DNA of 24,000 nt from an archaeon GW2011_AR15. Lineage in GTDB: Archaea > Nanobdellota > Nanobdellia > Woesearchaeales > GW2011-AR15. The notes under the pieces were generated by a model. That model did not search any database. It saw only the letters and a list, made by a program, of their open reading frames with translations, and was not told the DNA's origin. Made by a program: the position numbers and the translations under genes. The DNA is taken from assembly GCA_000830295.1 (NCBI GenBank), contig CP010425.1, positions 603,308 through 627,307 of the forward strand. The letters are read 5' to 3'. Positions 3,869 through 22,127 of the stretch are shown piece after piece (positions within the stretch are counted from its first letter, which is position 1; every line of letters begins with the position of its first letter).

Positions 3869-6295
3869 CTATCCAAGAATTCTCGCAGCATCAGCTACCT
3901 TATCGCCCTGGTTCAGCCTCATCAGCCTGACGCCCTGGGTGTTCCTTCCTATCACAGAAATGAATTTTGCGCTGGTCCTTATTACCTGGCCGTTGACGCT
4001 GATAAGCATAAGCTCGTCTTCGTCACTAACTGATTTTATGACGATGACCCCGCCGTTCCTTTCATTTGTTTTTATGTTTATGACTCCGCTCCCGCCCCTG
4101 TTAATGAGCCTGTAGTCTGATATGGGGGACCTTTTTCCAAATCCGTTTTCAGTGATTGTGAGCAGGGTCCTGTCTTCCTGGGCAACAACCATCCCTATTA
4201 CTTCATCACCTTTTTTCTTCAATGTTATTCCCCTGACGCCGAAGGAATGCCTGGCCACAGGCCTTACATCAGTCTCATTGAATTTTACAGCCATGCCTTC
4301 TTTTGTTGCCAGTATGAGCTGCTTCTCTCCGTTTGTCTTCACGACGCTTATAACATCATCTCCCTCTCTCAGGTTGATTGCCCAGATTCCTCCCTTCCTG
4401 GGCTTTGAATATGCCCTGATCCTTGTCTTCTTCACTAATCCTCCTGTCGTTGCAAATACAAGATATTCATTATCCTTGAATTCTTTCACGGGAATCACAG
4501 CAGATATTTTCTCGTCCTGCTCCAGCCCCACGAGATTCACTATTGCCTTTCCTTTTGAATACCTTGATGCATCAGGAATCCTGTAGACTTTTGTCCAGTA
4601 AACCCTTCCCTTGTTTGTAAATGTAAGCAGGAATGAGTGCGTGTTTGCAATGAAAAGATGCTCCAGGAAATCCTCTTCTTTTGTCTCTGCTCCCCTTATT
4701 CCCTTGCCTCCCCTTCCCTGCTGCTTGTATTCATCAAGGCTCATCCTTTTTATGTATCCTGAATGGCTTATTGTCACAACAACATCTTCCTCGTCAATAA
4801 GGTCCTCAATATCAAGATCATCTTCATAGGCTATTATTTTTGTCCTTCTCTCATCTCCGTAATTGTCAATAAGTTCCTGCAGCTCTTTCTTTATCAGCCC
4901 AAGCACTTTGCTCTTGTCTGCAAGTATGCCTTCAAGCTCTGCAATAAGGCTGACAAGCCCAGCATGCTCATCCTTTATTTTCTTCTGCTCAAGTGCAGCC
5001 AGCCTCTGAAGCTTCAGATCAAGTATTGCTTTTGCCTGCTCCTCGCTTAGCTGGTAATCCCTCATCAGCATGTCTTTTGCCTCTGCTGCATCGGCAGACT
5101 TCTTTATTTTCTCAACAACAGCATCAATATGCGCCAATGCTACAAGAAGCCCTTCAAGAATATGGGCCCTCTCCGTGGCTTTCCTTAAATCGTATTTTGT
5201 CCTTCTTGTTATTATATTGGTCCTGTGCTCTATGTGATATTCAATAAGATTCTTCAGGTTGAGTGTCTTCGGGATATTATTGACAAGGGCAAGGAACCTT
5301 ATACCATAGCTCGTCTGGAGCCTTGAATGCTTGTAAAGCTGGTTTATTACCACTTCCGGATTTGTATCCTTTTTCAGGGTTATCACGATTCTCATCCCTG
5401 TCCTGTCGCTCTCATCCCTCAGCTCTGATATCTCTGTTATTGTCTTCTTCCTTACAAGGTCGGCAATCTCCTCAAGAAGCAGGGATTTGTTTATCATGTA
5501 GGGGATTTCCTTTACAATAAGCGAGACTCTCCCTTTCTTTTCCTCAGTCTCTATCCTTGCCCTTACCTTGATATTTCCTTTTCCTGTTGCATATGCCTGC
5601 TTTGCCCCGGCATCCCCGCACAGCAGGCCGCCTGTCGGCAGATCAGGGCCTTTTACAACAGCAGCAAGCTCATTAACGGATATCTCGGGATTGTCAATAT
5701 TCATTATTATTGCCCTGCACACATCCTTAAGATTATGCGGGGGTACATTGGTTGCCATTCCGACAGCAATGCCGGATGAGCCGTTCACAAGAAGATTTGG
5801 CACAACGCTCGGAAGTATTTTGGGCTCCTTCAGCGAGCCGTCGAAATTATCCTGCATATCAACTGTTTCCTTTTCAATATCTTTCAGGATCTCAGATGAA
5901 ACCTTCTCAAGCCTCGCCTCAGTATACCTCATGGCAGCGGGATTGTCGCCGTCAATGCTTCCGAAGTTTCCCTGCCCGTTAACAAGGGGATATCTCAGGG
6001 ACCATGGCTGCGCCATCCTCACAAGCGCATCATAGACAGAGGAGTCTCCGTGCGGGTGGTATTTACCAAGCGTCTCTCCCACGATTCTTGCGGATTTCTT
6101 GAAAGGCTTGCCATGCTCCAGGCCGAGCTCCATCATCGTAAACAGGATACGCCTGTGGACAGGCTTTAAGCCGTCCCTCACATCAGGCAGAGCCCTTGAG
6201 ACTATGACAGACATAGCATAATCAAGAAAATCTGCCTTCAGCTCATTTTCAATGATTGCCGGAATAACCCTTTCCTGATTACTTTCTTCTGCCAT
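3869..6295 (-). CDS. gyrA: DNA gyrase subunit A
   Basis: 808 aa, ATG at 6295. Motifs seen: [32 protein letters not shown], the catalytic-Tyr motif [10 protein letters not shown], and the GyrA-box-like QQGRGGKG at the start of the beta-pinwheel C-terminal domain. Confidence 0.95.
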
Positions 6296-11459: not shown

Positions 11460-12332
11460 ATGGTAAAGGCAAATGTCGACAGGATTCTCGAGATTCTCAG
11501 GCAGAAAAAATCTCTCAATATAAAGGATCTTGCATCACAGCTCGGGATAAAGAAAGAGGACGCTGAGAAATCTGCAGAATACCTGGAGCAGGATGGCGTA
11601 GTAAGGATAGAGCACAGGTTCCCGAATACAATTGTCGCGCTTGTAGGTGATGCTTCATCTTTTGGAAATACTGACAGCAGCATGATGCCACCCCTTGACC
11701 TGCAAAAACAACAGGAGACAAAAGAGCAGCCAGCTGGGAAAAAGCCAATGCTCCCCAAGCTTAGCATACCGAAACTGAAGCAGGCAAAGCCTGAAGCAAA
11801 GCAGCCGAAACCAGAACCCGTAAACCAGTTCCCGCAGCCATCATGGCCAGGGCAGAAAGGCCAGAAAAAGGTTGAGTGGCCCGGACTGGAGAATCAGAAG
11901 AAAGCTGAATGGCCGGAAGATATAAAGAAGACAGTAAAAACAGAAGAGAAAAAGCAGGATGTTCCAAAAACACCAAAAAAAGAAGAGCCCGTGATACTTA
12001 AGGATGAAAACCCTCTTGAGCCCGAGACTCCGGGATTCTATATGGCTCCGCCTGATCCTGACGGGGAGCATGTCTACCACTTTGAAGCCTATTATGACTT
12101 TCCTGAAGACATAAAGACGGATTCTGACAAAATCAGTTTTCTTCTCACTGAGATAAATAAAAAAATAGCATCCAGGAACTATGACGGCCTTAACAAGATG
12201 TACAGGGTGCTTTATGACATATACAACAACACAGTAAGCATGAGTCCTAATGAGCTGTACCGGACTGCCGGAATAATCCAGGCGGTCTTTGATAAGATTA
12301 AGAATTTATACATGAAACAGCAGGCAGTTTAA
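11460..12332 (+). CDS. Hypothetical protein: N-terminal winged-helix-like domain, long K/P/E/Q-rich disordered linker, C-terminal helical domain
   Basis: The ATG at 11460 is preceded at about 24-35 nt by ATATATTTATATAC. The N-terminus VDRILEILRQKKSLNIKDLASQLGIKKEDAEKSAEYLEQDGVVRIEH is wHTH-like. Residues of about 65-200 are low complexity, with QKKVEWPG / QKKAEWPE repeats. Confidence 0.6.
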   Translation: MVKANVDRILEILRQKKSLNIKDLASQLGIKKEDAEKSAEYLEQDGVVRIEHRFPNTIVALVGDASSFGNTDSSMMPPLDLQKQQETKEQPAGKKPMLPKLSIPKLKQAKPEAKQPKPEPVNQFPQPSWPGQKGQKKVEWPGLENQKKAEWPEDIKKTVKTEEKKQDVPKTPKKEEPVILKDENPLEPETPGFYMAPPDPDGEHVYHFEAYYDFPEDIKTDSDKISFLLTEINKKIASRNYDGLNKMYRVLYDIYNNTVSMSPNELYRTAGIIQAVFDKIKNLYMKQQAV

Positions 12333-12347
12333 TAAGATTTTTAAAAC
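12333..12347 (+). promoter_or_regulatory. TATA-like promoter box TAAGATTTTTAAAAC upstream of the tRNA-Arg locus
   Basis: It shares TAAGATTT..TAAAA with the box at 14960-14972. It ends 24-25 nt before G12372, the same spacing as between TATA-like boxes and the ATGs of genes 6770 and 13030. Confidence 0.5.
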
Positions 12348-12371
12348 ACTGTTAATTCTTTCTCTATTCAT

Positions 12372-12471
12372 GCGCCTTGTAGCTCACATGAATCAACTGT
12401 CCTGTCGGTTGACACCGGTGTGCGGCGTGCGCTCATTAGTGAGCTTAGCCCCACTAATAAAGAAAAAACAT
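12372..12471 (+). other. 100-nt structured 5' leader / degenerate tRNA-like element upstream of tRNA-Arg
   Basis: It begins with GCGCCTTGTAGCTCA, a copy (one extra T) of tRNA positions 1-14. It contains GTGAGCT (12439-12445), complementary to AGCTCAC (12381-12387). It also has hairpins CGGT-TGAC-ACCG (12406-12417) and ATTAGTG/CACTAAT (12435-12441 / 12452-12458). Confidence 0.45.
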
Positions 12472-12546
<75 letters not shown>

Positions 12547-12560
12547 CTTTTCTTTTGCTC

Positions 12561-12971
12561 CTATACATATATGCCGACAGAATAAGATTTATACAATTTT
12601 CCGGCTATATTGCCGCGGGTTCCAAGATTCATCAGCAGGAGATTTGAAAGCTCCTCTGACATTGGTTGTCCGTTCCTTTCAGGGGACCAGATTTTTTTCT
12701 CTGCTGAATAAACCAGGTGTGCCTGGGAAACAAAATCTTTCAGCAGGCTTCTCTGGAGAGGGCCGAAGTTAAATTTAGCCTCAATTCTTCCTATCATCTC
12801 TTCAAGATAATAATCTGTGCCGGAAGGATTTGAATCATAGATAATTCTATAAGCTGCATAAGCATCAAGAACAAGCCTGAATTCACTCATCTCCAACTTT
12901 TCTTTACGTAATGCCTCAAGCAGCTTTTTTTCTTCCTTTGTATAGGTCGGCATATTCAGTCGAAGAAGCAT
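12561..12971 (-). CDS. Hypothetical protein (136 aa)
   Basis: ATG at 12971; an alternative ATG at 12953 fits a second TATA-like box. Divergent from ogg across an AT-rich region of about 58 nt holding two TATA-like boxes. I recognise no motif. Confidence 0.55.
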   Translation of the reverse strand: MLLRLNMPTYTKEEKKLLEALRKEKLEMSEFRLVLDAYAAYRIIYDSNPSGTDYYLEEMIGRIEAKFNFGPLQRSLLKDFVSQAHLVYSAEKKIWSPERNGQPMSEELSNLLLMNLGTRGNIAGKLYKSYSVGIYV

Positions 12972-13029
12972 CTTATATTTAAAATTAGCCTGATTAAATT
13001 TAAATATCGGGGTTTATTGCCCTTGAGCT

Positions 13030-13707
13030 ATGGACAGGGAGCAGCTTCTGGCAGTGTATAATGTGAGGAGAGACAGGATAAAGTCAAGGCTAGGTGAGTT
13101 TACGCGATTCTACAATGAGCCTGTCTCATGGTTTTATGAGGAGAAAAGCATGGTATTGAAGCCTGTTGACAGAGACCATAATGAAAGGATATTTGAGGAG
13201 CTCTGCTTCTGCCTTATGACTGCCAACACCTCAGCAGAGATGGGGCTGAAAGGCGTAGATGGCATAAGAAAGATACTTTTTACAGGCTCTCTGGAAGATA
13301 TACAGCTGGCGCTTGCTGATGCAGGATACAGGTATCCCAACAAAAGGGCAGAGTATATTATCGAAGCGAGAGAAAGGTTTTCAGATGTAAGGGAGCTTGT
13401 TGAAAGCCATGAGGACAAAAAGAAGCTCAGGGAGCATCTTGCAGAGAATGTGAAGGGTTTGGGATACAAGGAAGCCAGCCATTTCCTTAGGAATATAGGG
13501 GTTTTCGGGCTGGCAATACTTGACAAGCACATCCTCAGGACAATGCATGAGCATGGTGTGATTGAAGGGCTGCCAAAATCGCTGAACAGGAAAAATTATT
13601 TAGATATAGAAGAAAAATTTATTAAGTTTGCAGATGAGCTTGAGATAAACATGGACGAGCTCGACCTCCTGCTGTGGTCAATGAAGAACGGCAGGATTTT
13701 GAAATAG
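13030..13707 (+). CDS. ogg: 8-oxoguanine DNA glycosylase / AP lyase, archaeal Ogg2 type
   Basis: HhH-GPD features: ELCFCLMTANTSAE, RYPNKRAEYI, VKGLGYKEASHFLRNIG (catalytic Lys) and ILDKHIL (catalytic Asp). At 225 aa it is closely reminiscent of Methanocaldococcus Ogg. The TATA-like TTTAAATA ends 24 nt before the ATG. Confidence 0.88.
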   Translation: MDREQLLAVYNVRRDRIKSRLGEFTRFYNEPVSWFYEEKSMVLKPVDRDHNERIFEELCFCLMTANTSAEMGLKGVDGIRKILFTGSLEDIQLALADAGYRYPNKRAEYIIEARERFSDVRELVESHEDKKKLREHLAENVKGLGYKEASHFLRNIGVFGLAILDKHILRTMHEHGVIEGLPKSLNRKNYLDIEEKFIKFADELEINMDELDLLLWSMKNGRILK

Positions 13708-13708
13708 C

Positions 13709-13859
13709 ACGGTAGTGGTCTAACGGCATGACACGACCCTCCCAACCTTTTAAGAAAAGGTTGGCGAAAACAGGTGGGTTTCTTCACCTTGTTCGTCAAG
13801 CCCACATCAAAAAAAGGGAGAGTGAGGTCGATATCCGGGTTCAATTCCCGGCTACCGTA
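13709..13859 (+). tRNA. tRNA-Gly (anticodon CCC) with an 80-nt intron at or near position 37/38
   Basis: Acceptor ACGGTAG/CTACCGT; D arm GTCT-AACGGCA-TGAC; anticodon stem CGACC...GGTCG; loop CTCCCA|intron|A; variable ATAT; T arm CCGGG-TTCAATT-CCCGG; discriminator A. Mature length is 71 nt. The intron is about 13745-13824, and the junction is ambiguous by 1 nt. Followed by a T-run at 13860-13865. Confidence 0.85.
13745..13824 (+). other. tRNA-Gly intron (80 nt)
   Basis: It is flanked by the two halves of the anticodon stem. It contains a perfect 10-bp hairpin CCAACCTTTT-AAG-AAAAGGTTGG (13742-13764). GGGAG (13816-13820) is complementary to the anticodon-loop CTCCC (13739-13743). Confidence 0.75.
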
Positions 13860-13913
13860 TTTTTTCTAATTCAATAGATTTTAATACTTAAATTGTTTTA
13901 AAACTGCCCAGAG

Positions 13914-14417
13914 ATGGAAACAAAAGGGTTTTCACTGTGGCTTATGCCCGAAGGCGAGCAGTACAAAAGATTCAGCGGGATAATTTCTGATTTAGGTAAA
14001 AGATACAAAGGGCCAAGATTTGAACCGCATATAACTCTTTTAGGAGATATAGAAAGGGGTAAGGAAGATGTATTCAACAGGGCAAACCAGCTGGCGCAGG
14101 TTGTAAAGCCCTTTAATGTAAAGCTTGACAGGACAGAATACTCCAATGAATATTTTAAATGTGTTTTTGCCAGGGCAGAAGAAGAATACGAATTCATGAA
14201 AGCAGGGGATATTGCCAGAAGGTTTTTCTATATGGAATCCCAGAAATTCATGCCTCACCTGAGCCTGCTGTACGGGAATTACAGCGAAGATATAAAGAAA
14301 GAGATTGTCTCGAAACTGAAAATAAATGAGGAAGTGCCAGTGAATTGCCTGCATGTTGCCGAAACAAAGGGCGAGCCAGAAGAATGGAAGATACTGAGGA
14401 AAATACCTTTCAGATAA
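13914..14417 (+). CDS. 2H phosphoesterase, cyclic phosphodiesterase (CPDase) family
   Basis: Two H-x-T/S-x motifs in CPDase-type context: GPRFEPHITLLG and FMPHLSLLYG. The N-terminal FSLWLMPEGE and the overall length (167 aa) match my recollection of plant/yeast CPDase (Appr>p phosphodiesterase). Confidence 0.8.
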   Translation: METKGFSLWLMPEGEQYKRFSGIISDLGKRYKGPRFEPHITLLGDIERGKEDVFNRANQLAQVVKPFNVKLDRTEYSNEYFKCVFARAEEEYEFMKAGDIARRFFYMESQKFMPHLSLLYGNYSEDIKKEIVSKLKINEEVPVNCLHVAETKGEPEEWKILRKIPFR

Positions 14418-14962
14418 GCAGCCTGTTCAGGGATAAATATAAGCTGAGGCTTGTAATTATTACAGTCCTTACTTTAATGATACTCTCAGTTTTCATAAAT
14501 ATCTGGGCACTTGTATTCATCATCACTTTCTCATTCCTCAATTCCCTCCTGCTTTCCATAGAGAGGTATGTCAGCATAACCCATGATCTTGAGCTTTCTA
14601 CATTCTCAGCGGTCATGATGAGCGTCTCTTTTGGGCTTGGATGGGGGATGACAGCGGCATTCTTCACGAAATTCATGGAGATAATGTATAACAAAAGCAT
14701 GGAGATAGAGGACATACTTGCAATCACGTCATTCATGATTGCCGCGGTCCTTGGCTTTATTTTTAGGGATATGAATATAACCGAGGTCGGAATAGTTGTT
14801 ACCTTTGCCGTCAATGTATTCAACTTCATTACATCCAGCATGGTGGGATACTACACCAAGTATGAACTTATATTCCAGGTAATGACAAATATAGTGCTGA
14901 ACCTTGTCCTTTTCGTGAGTGCAGCCCCGGTATTGCTTACACTTCTCACTCTTTTAAGATAA
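14384..14962 (+). CDS. Polytopic membrane protein (5-6 predicted TM helices), function unknown
   Basis: The track ORF starts at TTG 14345. I prefer ATG 14384 (MEDTEENTFQ...), which still overlaps the upstream gene by 34 nt. The next ATG (14477) would cut the first TM helix. Confidence 0.6.
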   Translation: MEDTEENTFQISSLFRDKYKLRLVIITVLTLMILSVFINIWALVFIITFSFLNSLLLSIERYVSITHDLELSTFSAVMMSVSFGLGWGMTAAFFTKFMEIMYNKSMEIEDILAITSFMIAAVLGFIFRDMNITEVGIVVTFAVNVFNFITSSMVGYYTKYELIFQVMTNIVLNLVLFVSAAPVLLTLLTLLR

Positions 14963-14972
14963 GATTTAAAAG
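14960..14972 (+). promoter_or_regulatory. TATA-like promoter box TAAGATTTAAAAG upstream of the tRNA-Leu locus
   Basis: It shares TAAGATTT..TAAAA with 12333-12347. It overlaps the TAA stop (14960-14962) of the upstream gene. It ends 25-26 nt before G14998. Confidence 0.5.
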
Positions 14973-14997
14973 ATAATGGCTTTTCTTTTGTTTATAT

Positions 14998-15044
14998 GCG
15001 GAGGTGCGTTGAAACCGGAAACGGTTCACTGACCTCCTCAAAAC
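14998..15044 (+). other. 47-nt structured 5' leader: minihelix-like degenerate copy of tRNA-Leu
   Basis: GCGGAGGT (14998-15005) equals tRNA positions 1-8 (15045-15052). GGAGGT pairs with ACCTCC (15032-15037). The inner hairpin is AACCG-GAAA-CGGTT (15013-15026). CCTCCTCA (15033-15040) is a one-mismatch copy of the tRNA 3' end CCTCCGCA (15164-15171). Confidence 0.5.
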
Positions 15045-15171
15045 GCGGAGGTAGCGAAGTGGCCAAACGTGGCAGACTCAAGAATTTGAGTGATGAGCCG
15101 AGAGGCGATGACATACTATTGGGCCATCTGCTCCCTTAGTGGGTTCGCAGGTTCGAATCCTGTCCTCCGCA
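15045..15171 (+). tRNA. tRNA-Leu (anticodon CAA), class II, with a 43-nt canonical intron
   Basis: Acceptor GCGGAGG/CCTCCGC; D region GCG-AAGTGGCCAAA-CGT; anticodon stem GCAGA...TCTGC; loop CTCAAG|intron|A; 15-nt variable arm TCCCTTAGTGGGTTC; T arm GCAGG-TTCGAAT-CCTGT; discriminator A. Mature length is 84 nt. Followed by TTTTT. Confidence 0.9.
15083..15125 (+). other. tRNA-Leu intron (43 nt, position 37/38, BHB-compatible)
   Basis: The central 4-bp helix TCAA (15078-15081) / TTGG (15119-15122) is flanked by 3-nt bulges GAA (15082-15084) and GCC (15123-15125), adjacent to the anticodon stem. Confidence 0.75.
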
Positions 15172-15223
15172 TTTTTATTCTAAATTTGAAAAGAATTATA
15201 AATTAAAACAGATTAAGATATTT

Positions 15224-15676
15224 ATGGAGTTTGAAGATAAAAGATTTTCCCTCTTTTTTAACGCCATATTGATTCTTTTCGCATCCTTTTGCTTTGTCAT
15301 AGGATACTTAGGAGAGTATATGGTAGTTATGTTTATAGTCTCTTTTACCATTATCCTATTTATCGTTAATGATAGAAATCATTTAATAAGGTTTGATGAT
15401 AACTCGATTGAGATGAGTATTAGCCGGTGGAATCTAAAAGATAGAAAAAAGTTCAGATGGAATGAGATCAAAAGTATCTCTATTATCATATCGTTTATCT
15501 CTCTTCCAACTTTAATTATTGAAACCAAGGAAGGAAAAACTTATCTGACATACATTGTTAACGACAAAGGATTTGCCACTAAACTCTCAGAGTTGAAGAA
15601 TAAGTCAAGAGCATTAAATCATATCAATGTAGCAGTGCCATTTTATTTTAAAACACATTTTAAAAAATCTAATTAA
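15224..15676 (+). CDS. Hypothetical membrane protein (2 N-terminal TM helices + small soluble domain), AT-rich orphan
   Basis: The ATG at 15224 is preceded by the TATA-like ATTATAAATT about 20 nt upstream. 150 aa. GC is about 27-33% in three 60-nt samples, against 40-48% in the flanking genes. Confidence 0.55.
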   Translation: MEFEDKRFSLFFNAILILFASFCFVIGYLGEYMVVMFIVSFTIILFIVNDRNHLIRFDDNSIEMSISRWNLKDRKKFRWNEIKSISIIISFISLPTLIIETKEGKTYLTYIVNDKGFATKLSELKNKSRALNHINVAVPFYFKTHFKKSN

Positions 15677-15707: not shown

Positions 15708-18700
15708 TTAGCTAGTTTCCCTCGTTATCGTGAAACTGTCCACAACATTGCCATTCAGGGTCTTGAATTCCCCTTTTGCCTTTGTTGTATCCCCGCCTAC
15801 GTTAAATGTTATGAACAATGCTCCGTAGTTGAAGTTGCTTACAACATTTGTTGTGCAGGATTTGACCTGCTGGATGCCGTTGGTCATGTGGTAGTTGTTT
15901 GAGAATATGCTTGCCCACCATGTATCTGAGTCATGCAGTGCACAGCTGTAGTTTCCAAGGCTGTTCCCTCCAAGCCCTGAGACGACAGTGAATGATTTTC
16001 CGTCTCCAAGTGTCAGCTGGCCAGGCTCGCCTGCTGTTACTATAGGCCCGTCATCAGGCAGGCTTGTGATTGTCCTTGTCCTGGCATAATTACCATCGTA
16101 TCCTGTAACTATTATAGCGCCTTCATCAAGGCATTTCTGGTAGTATTTTCTTCCCAGAGTGTCTGCATCGAGCTTGCTTCCTACCCTCAGGTCATGGTTG
16201 CTCTTGTGGAATACGCAGATGTTCCATGGCTTGTCTGAGGCTGCGAGCTCTTCTGCTATGAATTCCTCGTGCCCGCTTTCTTCAAATGAAGTGCCTACTC
16301 CGGACATCACAAGCAGAATATCCTGGAATCTGCATGTTCCCTTGTTGCCGAATGCCCCTTCGCAGTCCATATCAACAATCCTGCTGTTCCTTGTATCTAA
16401 GATAACCCTGTAGTTTGCCCAGTCTGCAGCATCACTGGCCCCTACTACGCCGGCATATGCAAAGCCAGGGTCAAGGCTTGTGTTTATCATTGTCTCCCAT
16501 TGTGCGGGAGTTGAGCCCATGCCGAGGTTTCCGGCATGCACTATCATCACAGCGCCTTCCTGCCTTGTGAAATTAAGCAGAGTCTTTGCATTGGCTCCTA
16601 TCCCCTGATTGGCTATGAAGGCAACTTTTATCTCGGCAGGAGGCTCTTCCGGAGTAAATTCGCATTCTGTATCAAGATATTTTTCTCCTGCCTCGCACAA
16701 CAATTCTTTGAACGCATTGCTGTATGCAAGCTGGTTTCTTACAGTCTTTATTGTCTCTGTTTCGCCGCCAAGCGCAAGCCATGGCGAGAATATAATGCCG
16801 TCGAAATTATCCTGTCCGAGTACCCTTTCCCCAACACCAGTAACCCATTCCGCGTCCGGCATATCATGCGTTGCATCCTTGAATACTTTTACAACAGGAA
16901 TTACTTTTACTTCTGAGAACTTGTCCTTTATATCTGCTGCAAGCCCATCCTGGTTGTCAAAGAAATTATCATTTTCTTCATTTGGCAGCCTTTCATTGTC
17001 GATATTGAAAAGTGCTATATCGAAGAACTGCTTATCAGCAGCATTGACAAGCTGTTTTGCGCATGTCAGGTTGCCGAATCCCATTATAACTGGGGTTTCC
17101 TCATTCTTTTTCCTGAATTCATCATACAGCTTTGTAAGGTTGGCTGCATTTGCATCCCAGTTGCAGACGTCGTCTATTATCCAGTAGCCCAATATTGCAT
17201 CATCTGCTATTGCATTCCCGAAATCAACTTTTGTGAAGTCAATCTTATTGTTTTTCCTGAACTTGGTATCATCTAGTTTAAAGAATAGGCCAAGGTCCCC
17301 TGCTTCATCAAGGGCAGCCTCAATCTGCCCCTTTGTCCTGTTATTAAGCCCGACAGCAAATGCGCCAAACCCTTCAATCAGCTCGAAATCGCTTGGCAGG
17401 GCATTGAATATTCCCACTATTGAACCGCTTTCAACAGGCTCCTCATTTTCAGGCACACATTTTTTGTTTACGCATATATCCCCTTCCTTGCAGTCGTCAT
17501 CATCTTCACAGGTATTTTTCATATCCAGCAGATGCTCTATCTGGTTAAGCTTGAAGTACAGCTGGTTGTACCCGTCTATTTCCTGGCTCAGTGTTCCAAG
17601 CACATAGCAGCTTCCGTCATCTCTCTGTGCAAGTTTTGTAAATGTTATTGTACCAGATGATAAGTCTCCGAATGCATCGCACATCTGTGTGTCCCTTGTG
17701 TCAACTGTCCTGTCCAGTGTTGCTGTCTGCGGAAGGTTGACAGACACGCCATCGCATGAGTTCTTTAGTCCGCCGGTGTAGCATGGGATATTGCCCCCGC
17801 CACCGCCTCCTCCACCCCCATTGCTTCCGTTAGTGCCAGGGATAGGAACTGGTGGGTATGGAACACCACCCCCGCCACCCCCAATAGGTGGAACAGGAGC
17901 GCACACATCAGGAGTAGAAGCACACTGATCAGCACAATACGTGCAGTCGCTTGGTGCATCGCAGGTATCAGGCTTTTCATCGCATAAAGCAAGAGCTTCT
18001 TCCCTGTTTTCATCAATTATAAGGCAGCTGTAAGCAACTGCAGCGGCACTATAACCTAGAGTAGTTTCTCCCTCAGTCTCTTCTTCCTCTGAACTGGATG
18101 TAGCTAGGCAGGCTTGCTGATCATTAGACCAATATCCTCCGGCTCCAGTGCATTCAACACTGTTTTCGCATAAACTCAGGTGGGCAGCATCACACTCAAA
18201 AAATGTTGGTTGGTCGCATGAGGAACATCCACGCTCAAAGGCACCCCAGCTAGGGCAATCTCGCCAGCAGATTAAGCCGTCTACACATACATGTTGATTA
18301 TTCTTTGGCCATCCCTCACACCACACTGCACCTTCTCCTGAACAGGTTTCACCATTCTTCATAAAAAACCCATCAGGACAAACACCTTGCTCATCTACAA
18401 CACATTGCCCACTTGACTGGTCACAAGTCTCTCCGTCTTTACTGCAGTCATACCCATACATCTGACCGTTGCTGCAATATGTTGAGGCTGCGCTACTTGA
18501 GCATGAGAAGGCATCATTATTAGTGCATGTTTGTCCTTGCAACAATTCATAATTTCTCCCATCTATTACTGGGTTTCCAGTGATATCAGTAATTGTATTT
18601 CCAGTAACTGCAGTCACCCCCCCCGTTGGAGGTAAATTATTCAGTGGGTTGTTTTCTCCACAGAACTCATCACACTGGTCGCTCTCCTGCCATTTGCCGT

Positions 18701-20789: not shown

Positions 20790-22127
20790 ATGGTGATGAT
20801 TGAAATCACAGCAGTCGGCGGCTATTCTGAAGTAGGAAAAAACATGACAGCTGTGAAATACAAAGATGATGTTGTGATTCTGGACATGGGGCTTCACATG
20901 GAGACTTATATCAACCTTGAGGATGATGACGATGATGATTCTCACAGCCTGAGGGACCTGACGAACACAGGTGCAGTCCCTGATGATTCTGTTATTGAAA
21001 ATCTTAAGAAAAAAGTTGTTGCGATCGTGCCCAGCCACGGTCATCTGGATCACATAGGAGCAATACCCTTCCTGGCGCAGAATTACAACGCCCCGGTTAT
21101 ATGCACACCATATACAGCAGCAGTGCTCAGGGCAGTAGTAGCGGATAAAAAAATACCCTTCTCAAATGAGATAGTTGCAATGGAATTTGGGAGGAAGATG
21201 AAACTTTCTGATTCAATAACAATCGAATTTGTCAATGTCACGCACAGCATTCCCCATACAGCTATTGTTGTGATACATACCCCTGACGGCAAAGTAGTTT
21301 ATGCAAATGACTTTAAGCTTGATGAAACCCCGACATTCGGAGAAAAGACAGACTACAAAAAGCTGAAAGAATTAAGCGGAAGGAATGTCAAGGTCCTGAT
21401 ACTTGATTCGCTGTATGCAGGTACTGACAGGAAAACTCCTTCTGAAAGCGTTGCAAGAGACATGCTGAAGGAGGTCATGCTGAACACCGACACGAAAGGG
21501 AAAGCAGTGATAATATCAACTTTTTCATCCCACATAGCAAGACTGAAATCAATAGTCGAGTTTGGAAAAAAGATGAAAAGGAAGATAATATTCATGGGCC
21601 GCAGCCTGGCCAAGTATGTGGCTGCTGCTGAAAGCATAGGCCTTGCCAAATTCTCGCCCTCTGTTGAGATCTGCGCCTATAAGAAGCAGATGAAGAAGCC
21701 GCTCATGAAAGTTGAGAAAGACGGAAGGGACAAATACCTTATAGTATGCACAGGCCATCAGGGAGAGCCCACGGCAGTGCTTACCAGGCTGGCAGATGAT
21801 AAAATTGGGTTCAGCCTGCAGAGGAATGACCATGTGATTTTCTCGTGCACAGTAATTCCCACAGAAACCAACAGGAAAAACAGGGCATCCCTTGAAAAAA
21901 GGCTCTTGAGGTATGGTGTAATCATATTCAGGGATGTCCATGAGTCAGGCCATGCCAGCAGGCAGGACCATAAAGAGCTTATTGAACTGCTCCAGCCTGA
22001 GCACATAATACCGGCGCACGCAGGCCATGACAAGACAAAGCACATGATTTCACTGGCTGAAGAGCTCGGCTACAAAAGAAATAAGACAGTGCATGAGATG
22101 AAGGACGGAAAGACAATTATGTTATAG
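20790..22127 (+). CDS. rnj: Ribonuclease J (archaeal beta-CASP metallo-beta-lactamase RNase)
   Basis: N-terminus IEITAVGGYSEVGKNMTAV; MBL motif HGHLDHIG; C-terminal HESGHASRQDH...IPAHAG. 445 aa. The start may instead be ATG 20796 (MIEIT...), which better fits the TATA-like TTTATATA at 20766-20773. Confidence 0.9.
   Translation: MVMIEITAVGGYSEVGKNMTAVKYKDDVVILDMGLHMETYINLEDDDDDDSHSLRDLTNTGAVPDDSVIENLKKKVVAIVPSHGHLDHIGAIPFLAQNYNAPVICTPYTAAVLRAVVADKKIPFSNEIVAMEFGRKMKLSDSITIEFVNVTHSIPHTAIVVIHTPDGKVVYANDFKLDETPTFGEKTDYKKLKELSGRNVKVLILDSLYAGTDRKTPSESVARDMLKEVMLNTDTKGKAVIISTFSSHIARLKSIVEFGKKMKRKIIFMGRSLAKYVAAAESIGLAKFSPSVEICAYKKQMKKPLMKVEKDGRDKYLIVCTGHQGEPTAVLTRLADDKIGFSLQRNDHVIFSCTVIPTETNRKNRASLEKRLLRYGVIIFRDVHESGHASRQDHKELIELLQPEHIIPAHAGHDKTKHMISLAEELGYKRNKTVHEMKDGKTIML

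Follow-up and report, generated by a model that had tools for sequence, protein, structure and literature searches.

Why should an archaeal tRNA gene be preceded, at the very site where its transcript is predicted to begin, by a copy of its own 5' end? The question is raised by the tRNA-Leu(CAA) gene in the 24,000-nucleotide (nt) stretch of DNA analysed here (the window), where a 47-nt element that opens with such a copy separates the promoter-predicted start from the tRNA. The window locus is that of a groundwater archaeon labelled Candidatus Woesearchaeota (assembly GCA_018303605.1, contig JAGVXU010000001.1). The loci compared with it were L001; L018 and L038, which overlap at 99.96% identity and therefore represent a single organism, a Hainich relative; L037/L040; L041; L042/L049, from a third lineage; and L053, a Hainich locus containing tRNA-Arg. 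The orthologous tRNA-Leu genes of L001 and L018/L038 were recognised through their synteny with the window (Ogg, CPDase, membrane protein, tRNA-Leu). On balance, the 47-nt element appears to be a genuine transcribed 5' leader of tRNA-Leu(CAA), derived by duplication, retained by selection and presumably removed by RNase P.

The copy matches the first eight nucleotides of the tRNA (Table 1), and GCG at 15006-15008 extends the match to tRNA nt 10-12, with A9 absent. The chance that an 8-nt prefix recurs in about 100 upstream bases is estimated at about 0.0015, and a prefix copy of at least 6 nt within 200 nt upstream was found for none of the 15 other DPANN tRNA genes in the fetched loci. Taken together with the exact promoter register described below, these figures make chance a poor explanation of the copy. 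The element folds into one irregular hairpin, the stability of which was reached by none of 200 shuffled sequences. GGAGGT (15000-15005) pairs with ACCTCC (15032-15037); the helix starts with a G1-C pair and a C2-U mismatch, continues through GGAGG/CCTCC and a U8-A pair, and is followed by an A. The 3' arm includes CCTCCTCA (15033-15040), which differs in a single base from the 3' strand of the tRNA plus its discriminator, CCTCCGCA (15164-15171). When the whole precursor was folded, the leader hairpin persisted as a domain of its own, and the 3' acceptor strand was predicted to pair with the genuine 5' strand at a probability of 0.77-0.95 and with the copy at 0.05-0.23. The original prediction, in which this element was first described, had placed the repeat, the copy of the 3' strand, the GGAGGT/ACCTCC helix, the GAAA hairpin and the promoter box, and all of these coordinates were correct on recheck. 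Since both this leader and the corresponding leader of tRNA-Arg are identical in seven of seven independently assembled contigs (NCBI, JGI, ENA, Logan), the element is not an assembly artefact.

The position of the promoter relative to the copy explains why the copy can be regarded as a start site. The box of tRNA-Leu lies within a 13-nt sequence (14960-14972) that overlaps the TAA stop of the open reading frame (ORF) 14345-14962. Box A starts at -33 from the copy in the tRNA-Leu and tRNA-Arg genes of the window and in the tRNA-Leu gene of L042/L049, and at about -35 in the tRNA-Arg gene of L053. In leaderless relatives, box A starts at -30 to -38 (mode -33) from the +1 of the tRNA itself. For tRNA-Leu, it occupies -33 to -26 from +1 in the leaderless genes of L001, L037/L040 and L041 and lies 3 nt farther upstream in L038; the genes of L001 (Ogg-CPDase-tRNA) and L038 (CPDase-membrane protein-tRNA) are syntenic with that of the window. 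No box was found at this distance from the genuine +1 of the leader-bearing genes, including 15045. A leaderless-type promoter, consisting of box A at a fixed distance from a purine start, is found for the copy and not for the genuine tRNA-Leu. Because the box of the relatives lies at the same distance from the tRNA +1 without a leader, the copy evidently sits at the ancestral start site of tRNA-Leu. As judged from the box register, transcription would begin at about G14998, in support of the earlier proposal that a copy of the 5' end of the tRNA stands first in the leader, at the promoter-predicted start. The tRNA promoters of Nanoarchaeum equitans are similarly arranged: TTTAAA precedes the transcription start by 26 nt, and this start is also the tRNA +1 (PMC3491384). 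The sequence TTTATAT (14991-14997), which the original prediction considered as a second TATA element, is probably the initiator-proximal region instead, because a T-rich stretch ending in TTTAT directly before the G at +1 also occurs in the leaderless genes of L037 and L041.

The layout is not confined to tRNA-Leu. A parallel arrangement had been proposed for tRNA-Arg(CCU), and its copy indeed starts at 12372, with the tRNA itself following exactly 100 nt later, at 12472. The orthologous tRNA-Arg gene of L053, which has the same gene order (MacB-MacB-DUF5679-DUF4423-like), carries a 98-nt leader that can be aligned throughout with that of the window. In L042/L049, the promoter box of tRNA-Leu is followed after 25 nt by an 18-nt repeat, ATGCGCAGGTAGCGAAGT, at a spacing of 75 nt, and the 75-nt leader of L042 forms a long hairpin of about 29 pairs (-28.4 kcal/mol, z -4.35). 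The claim that the layout is systematic is thus borne out at the tRNA-Arg of the window, its ortholog in L053 and the tRNA-Leu of L042/L049. One part of the proposed promoter-copy-complement-tRNA layout does not hold for tRNA-Arg, where the complement is not conserved. The consensus fold of the two tRNA-Arg leaders consists of two hairpins (HP1 and HP2), with no conserved acceptor-like closing stem and without pairing of the copy to a conserved antisense segment.

The sister leaders are conserved. In Ogg and CPDase, 46-61% of the fourfold-degenerate sites have changed between the window and L053; the tRNA-Arg genes are 75% identical (56/75) and the tRNA-Arg leaders are 80% identical (75/94), with HP2 their most conserved part (Table 1). 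L042 and L049 have a neighbouring glycosyltransferase that is 90% identical. Their adjacent gene is 88.3% identical in nucleotides, and the differences, which affect 62 among 234 third codon positions (about 27% at synonymous sites) and 17 among 56 fourfold sites, extend as far as its last codons. Over the 119 nt that follow, comprising the box, the spacer, the leader and the first part of the tRNA, two positions have changed: one lies immediately before the box, the other in the apical loop of the leader, which is otherwise invariant over its 75 nt. If the leader had changed as fast as third positions, one difference or none in 75 nt would be expected with a probability of about 3e-9. Unconstrained sequence at orthologous loci had been named beforehand as a finding that would speak against the proposal; the sister leaders are instead constrained (1/75 in L042/L049, 80% identity for tRNA-Arg). 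They are therefore not decaying debris, and the decay envisaged in the original prediction is not what their conservation indicates.

A second feature of the sister elements is that copy and tRNA change together. The acceptor strand of tRNA-Arg reads GCGCCUG in the window and GCAGUUG in L053, and the leader copy has changed alike. For tRNA-Leu, GCGGAGG in the window corresponds to GCGCAGG in L042, and the change is mirrored both in the copy and in the antisense arm (ending in CCTCA and GCGCA, respectively). One of two processes must account for such concerted change: gene conversion over short tracts, or selection that keeps the copy able to pair with the 3' acceptor strand.

As to the origin of the leaders, tandem duplication, one of the explanations offered at the outset, gives the best account. 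The 5' repeats are exact over 8-18 nt and take in one to three bases upstream of +1 (AT, CAT, T). In L053, a 15-nt 5' repeat and a 19-nt repeat of the tRNA-Arg 3' end plus its T-run, the terminator (CCTCCCAACTGCGTTTTTT; 4396-4414 and 4494-4512), have the same spacing of 98 nt, as three tandem units would give. The same two observations would be expected if the leaders were neutral scars, that is, pseudo-tRNAs left by a decaying tandem or partial duplication, tolerated owing to RNase P and with a copy maintained by short-tract gene conversion. The extra T in the tRNA-Arg copy of the window, the failure of the two tRNA-Leu leaders to align and the lack of a tRNA-Leu leader in the closest relative of the window, whether it was lost or never arose there, also fit this scenario. 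Arguing against it is the conservation of the leaders, which far exceeds that of synonymous sites and, in the HP2 of tRNA-Arg, that of the tRNA itself. Moreover, the tRNA-Arg leader has been kept since the split of the window and Hainich lineages although its flanking direct repeats should favour deletion, and G-U pairs and a single compensatory change indicate that the RNA itself is constrained. A neutral scar is therefore unlikely.

Could the leader mimic a tRNA? The original prediction had likened the tRNA-Leu element to the top half of a tRNA, an acceptor-stem minihelix. Its stem is acceptor-like in part, with the C2-U mismatch, and an A follows. A faithful top half was rejected: the hairpin is capped by a GAAA tetraloop and not by a T-loop, its helix comprises about 16 irregular pairs where a top half would have 12, and the sister leaders differ, with 29 pairs in L042 and an acceptor-like part at the base of the L042 leader that is limited to GCGC/GCGC plus A. 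The functional version of the proposal, in which the minihelix serves tRNA enzymes (tRNase Z, the CCA-adding enzyme, RNase P or a synthetase) as a substrate, decoy or entry site, draws support from the base of the hairpin in both tRNA-Leu leaders, where the acceptor stem of the respective lineage is reproduced down to its 4:69 pair (G:C in the window and C:G in L042), and from the A at the discriminator position, 3-4 nt before the tRNA +1. It is quite improbable nonetheless. The enzymes in question measure a helix of 12 bp, whereas the leader helices comprise 16 and 29 pairs and lack a T-loop; the mimic in the window has a C-U mismatch at 2:71, and the tRNA-Arg leaders do not possess a conserved acceptor-like closing stem.

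Another explanation takes the copy as the real 5' exon of a disrupted gene. The following 47 nt, including the second copy, would then be an atypical intron removed by endonuclease and ligase, and RNase P would not be needed. Relatives of the organism are rich in non-canonical bulge-helix-bulge (BHB) introns, such as the T-loop introns in L001, L038 and L042. In addition, the core of the tRNA-Arg leader of L053 (4256-4294) matches, at 33 of 38 positions, the 5' portion of a bona fide T-loop intron that interrupts tRNA-Leu in the same Hainich genome (L038, 3236-3302); the alignment score of 51 compares with 14 +/- 2.3 for shuffled sequences. From this shared 38-nt module, leader and intron sequences seem to exchange. 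Covariation of the copy with the 3' acceptor strand, the predicted success of the L053 copy in acceptor pairing and a palindromic AGCU in tRNA-Arg, which could form a central 4-bp helix with a 3-bp h', likewise favour an exon. A strict scan and a register-by-register test, however, found no BHB intron with four of four H pairs plus flanking helices in either tRNA-Leu leader, and the latter test gave only weak partial motifs for the tRNA-Arg of L053; the scan did recover its controls, the canonical tRNA-Leu intron and the T-loop intron of L001. No splice register removes the 47 nt by way of a BHB, since both candidate splice regions have the same sequence and, being identical and not complementary, cannot form the central 4-bp helix unless they are palindromic. 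Furthermore, the intact tRNA downstream makes splicing unnecessary, and the extra U of the tRNA-Arg copy in the window would bulge the acceptor stem. A disrupted gene of this kind is very improbable.

Several observations on shared modules stand beside this question. The T-loop introns of L038 and L042 have in common a hairpin, GYGGC-RUAAA-GCCAC. A search of 480 kb of related sequence gave no further copy of the tRNA-Arg leader core, and the HP2 pattern was absent from the viral contigs examined; a D-arm pattern searched in viral contigs matched only phage tRNA-Tyr genes. A leader/trailer BHB around the tRNAs was considered and rejected, as the AATA/TATT at tRNA-Gly consists of A and T only and is not conserved in L049 or L051.

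The leader might also be an independent small RNA (sRNA), co-transcribed with the tRNA only for RNase P to make its 3' end. Dicistronic tRNA-sRNA precursors have been reported in N. equitans (PMC3491384), and the strong sequence conservation of HP2 would suit an RNA of this type. Yet the leaders match no Rfam family at E<1, show by eye no C/D, H/ACA or K-turn signature, and have a core that does not recur in the related sequence; an sRNA also leaves unexplained why it starts with the tRNA's own 5' end. This makes an independent sRNA decidedly unlikely. A cmscan search of 12300-15300 at E<=1 yielded only the three tRNAs of the window and one weak C/D match inside an ORF (sR28, 17 bits, E 0.22, at 14611-14664 in the membrane-protein ORF), the latter probably by chance. 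Other candidates were discarded as well: a hammerhead core, judged by eye together with the signatures named above; duplication of an integrase att site, as only 39-85 nt and no ORF lie between the repeats; a leader peptide at tRNA-Arg, the frame of which is interrupted by indels and not conserved between the window and L053; and pairing of the L053 leader with the downstream spacer as a processing stem, the folding energy of which (-37.4 kcal/mol) compares with -31.4 +/- 4.9 for shuffled sequences.

In the more plausible model of a retained leader, the promoters of the organism and its relatives are spaced for transcription to start at or within a few nucleotides of the tRNA +1. A local duplication downstream of the promoter would have left a second 5' end of the gene at the old start site and displaced the intact tRNA by 47 nt, or by 100 nt in the case of tRNA-Arg. 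The transcript would open with the copy, and in tRNA-Leu, as suggested by folding, the copy and the antisense arm would close the hairpin before the tRNA is made. The genuine 5' strand would thereby be free for the 3' acceptor strand and the tRNA would fold normally, after which a putative RNase P cut at 15044/15045 would release the leader as a 47-nt hairpin RNA. Because the sister elements are under purifying selection and the copy changes with the acceptor stem, the leader may be regarded as a retained cis-acting part of the precursor that acts on folding, processing or expression level. The conservation of the sister leaders argues that it contributes something, for example to precursor folding, to the order of processing or to the dosage of tRNAs that read a single codon. 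The repeat, the hairpin, the promoter register, the recurrence, the conservation of the sister leaders and the concerted change were observed directly and form the basis of this model.

The model implies that leaders are removed. A 5' processing activity must exist in the organism, because the third tRNA gene of the window (13709-13859), the orthologs of which in relatives were identified as tRNA-Gly(CCC) by ARAGORN, begins 2 nt past the stop codon of Ogg and has no box A of its own. All archaeal genomes surveyed encode at least one RNase P protein (PMC6380272). An archaeal RNase P RNA was found in the DPANN contig L044; the JGI metagenome from which L044 comes contains a contig of the window organism as well.

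A number of points weigh against the retained-leader model or limit its reach. The RNase P RNA was found only in the related contig L044, with about 80 kb of the window genome read. The transcription start, the removal of the leader and a stable leader RNA were deduced from the sequence, as were the sequestering role of the hairpin and any benefit. The leader of tRNA-Leu in the window has no diverged ortholog, seven contigs being identical and the closest relative, L038, lacking the leader; constraint on its own 47 nt is extrapolated from the sister elements. Beyond the tRNA-like part, it has no significant similarity to the leader of L042 (p 0.07-0.19), and the interiors of the leaders show no significant likeness to tRNA (p 0.99, 0.46 and 0.08). 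Other short intergenic stretches of L042/L049 are also invariant (0/22 and 0/25), which weakens the specificity of the conservation test. Finally, the copy in the tRNA-Arg leader of L053 is unpaired and is predicted to outcompete the genuine strand (0.98 versus 0.008), whereas in the tRNA-Arg of the window the genuine strand is predicted to win (0.99). A sequestering hairpin thus fits the folding of tRNA-Leu in the window, but is not universal. Since the two tRNA-Leu leaders cannot be aligned and the closest relative of the window has none, self-copy leaders either arise repeatedly or are old and easily lost via their flanking repeats.

The competition between the two strands can be given a more far-reaching interpretation. 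Self-copy leaders would then constitute a new class of tRNA gene disruption in Woesearchaeota, in which the copy and the genuine 5' strand compete for one 3' acceptor strand, the winner being determined by the conserved hairpins, one of which also occurs in a T-loop intron. The leaders would then act as a folding switch controlling how much of the Leu-CAA and Arg-CCU tRNAs is produced; alternatively, excision by a non-BHB mechanism would leave the copy as the mature 5' end, without a need for RNase P. We consider this interpretation doubtful.

Table 1 Features of the tRNA-Leu and tRNA-Arg units in the window
Feature	Position	Strand	Remarks
Box A/TATA element of the tRNA-Leu unit, TTTAAAAG	14965-14972	+	within TAAGATTTAAAAG; ends 25 nt before G14998
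Copy of tRNA-Leu nt 1-8, GCGGAGGT	14998-15005	+	identical to 15045-15052; at predicted transcription start
47-nt 5' leader of tRNA-Leu, single irregular hairpin	14998-15044	+	minimum free energy -19.5 kcal/mol, z -3.61
Apical hairpin AACCG-GAAA-CGGTT	15013-15026	+	sequence and folding
3' arm ACCTCCTCA, antisense of the copy	15032-15040	+	equals tRNA 3' acceptor strand plus discriminator A with one mismatch; sequence and folding
tRNA-Leu(CAA) with 43-nt intron at 37/38 (15083-15125)	15045-15171	+	Rfam RF00005, 44.3 bits; intron by strict hBHBh' scan
TTTTT run after the discriminator, likely terminator	15172-15176	+	could pair with AAAA of the leader tail; sequence, inference
Box A of the tRNA-Arg unit, TTTTAAAA	12339-12346	+	directly past the stop of ORF 11460-12332; 25 nt before G12372
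Copy of tRNA-Arg nt 1-14, GCGCCTTGTAGCTCA	12372-12386	+	one inserted T; orthologous L053 copy exact
100-nt 5' leader of tRNA-Arg(CCU)	12372-12471	+	ortholog of the 98-nt L053 leader
Hairpin HP1, TCAACTG...CGGTTGA	12393-12412	+	consensus fold; one compensatory C-G to U-A change
Hairpin HP2, most conserved part of the tRNA-Arg leader	12420-12454	+	32/35 identical to L053
tRNA-Arg(CCU)	12472-12546	+	ARAGORN and Rfam, 64.7 bits

Rfam identifies three tRNAs in the window, namely tRNA-Arg(CCU), the intron-containing tRNA at 13709-13859 and tRNA-Leu(CAA); ARAGORN with default settings finds only tRNA-Arg and misses the other two. No further tRNA was found in about 37 kb of additional sequence of the window genome (L045, L047, L050). 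The tRNA-Gly(CCC) gene has an A1-U72 pair and an 83-nt intron, in which the strict BHB scan detected no motif. In L049 and L051, tRNA-Gly(CCC) likewise adjoins or closely trails the stop of an ORF (in L051, 10 nt past the end of the Ogg ORF); in L052 it apparently has a promoter-like box of its own. The 37/38 intron of tRNA-Leu contains a K-turn or box C/D-like core, UGAUGA-GCC-GAGA-GGC-GAUGA-C, conserved in three lineages (window, L038, L042), and may be an L7Ae-binding intron. The tRNA-Leu ortholog of L001 (5652-5766) is without the 37/38 intron; instead, its T-loop is interrupted by a 28-nt intron that has a perfect hBHBh' motif. This gene scores below the Rfam gathering threshold and is missed by ARAGORN. 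Between the intron-containing tRNAs of the window lies a gene of the 2H phosphoesterase/CPDase family (13914-14417), which is syntenic in relatives, and an RNase J-like beta-CASP nuclease is encoded nearby (20790-22127); both belong to RNA-end-processing enzymes.

The surroundings of the tRNA-Arg leader hold two further repeats. Parts of HP1, TCAACTGTCCTGTC and GGTTGACA (12393-12414), recur on the + strand at 17701-17742 with 20 extra bases between them, within an ORF of 1661 amino acids on the minus strand (BLAST E 0.12 for the 14-mer alone); the recurrence reflects either coincidence or the copying of a module. The tRNA-Arg promoter box has a second copy, AATAAGATTTATACAA (12581-12596), 250 nt downstream of the first; 25 nt beyond this second copy follows a hairpin-rich stretch of about 85 nt that ends in T7 (12701-12707) and is antisense to the hypothetical ORF 12561-12971. 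The segment 12581-12707 could represent an sRNA missed by annotation or the decayed remains of a third tRNA-Arg unit.

The closest known counterparts of this arrangement are the leaderless tRNA genes of N. equitans (Randau et al. 2008; PMC3491384), also a DPANN archaeon, with a TTTAAA box A at a fixed distance from a purine start at the tRNA +1. The box register is the same, here with respect to the copy and in the relatives with respect to +1. Unlike N. equitans, which has neither RNase P nor such leaders, the window inserts 47-100 nt between start and tRNA in two tRNA genes, so that 5' processing is needed. The disrupted tRNA genes of archaea, with non-canonical BHB introns or in split or permuted form (PMC4090602, PMC3978253), resemble the self-copy leaders in that structured extra RNA breaks the relationship of promoter and tRNA, and in their rod-like hairpins, the one module common to leader and T-loop intron, and gain or loss between close lineages. 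They differ in that here there is no BHB, the tRNA is intact and contiguous, and the extra sequence lies outside the mature tRNA and opens with a duplicate of its 5' end. Organellar pseudo-tRNAs that arise by tandem duplication and random loss also consist of a partial direct repeat beside a functional tRNA, a likeness to which the 98-nt periodicity of L053 can be added; those pseudo-tRNAs decay, whereas the leaders are conserved and the copy evolves with the tRNA. Minihelices and tRNA-like small RNAs cut by RNase P or RNase Z, such as mascRNA, resemble the tRNA-Leu element, whose stem is acceptor-like in part and is followed by a discriminator-like A. Here, by contrast, a T-arm or T-loop is lacking, the length varies and the likeness is not general among the sister leaders.

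We rate the tRNA-Leu element as a new variant among the disrupted tRNA gene architectures of archaea. Leaderless, split and multi-intron tRNA genes are known for DPANN archaea, to which the self-copy leader adds a further form. New is that a leaderless-type promoter drives a conserved structured leader that opens with the tRNA's own 5' end. In practice, default ARAGORN misses two of the three tRNAs of the window, and no annotation would flag such leaders. If the leaders act in tRNA maturation, a lineage heading toward the loss of 5' processing would still use leaders, or would have re-acquired them, and the module common to a leader and a T-loop intron would link 5' leaders to the pool of mobile introns.

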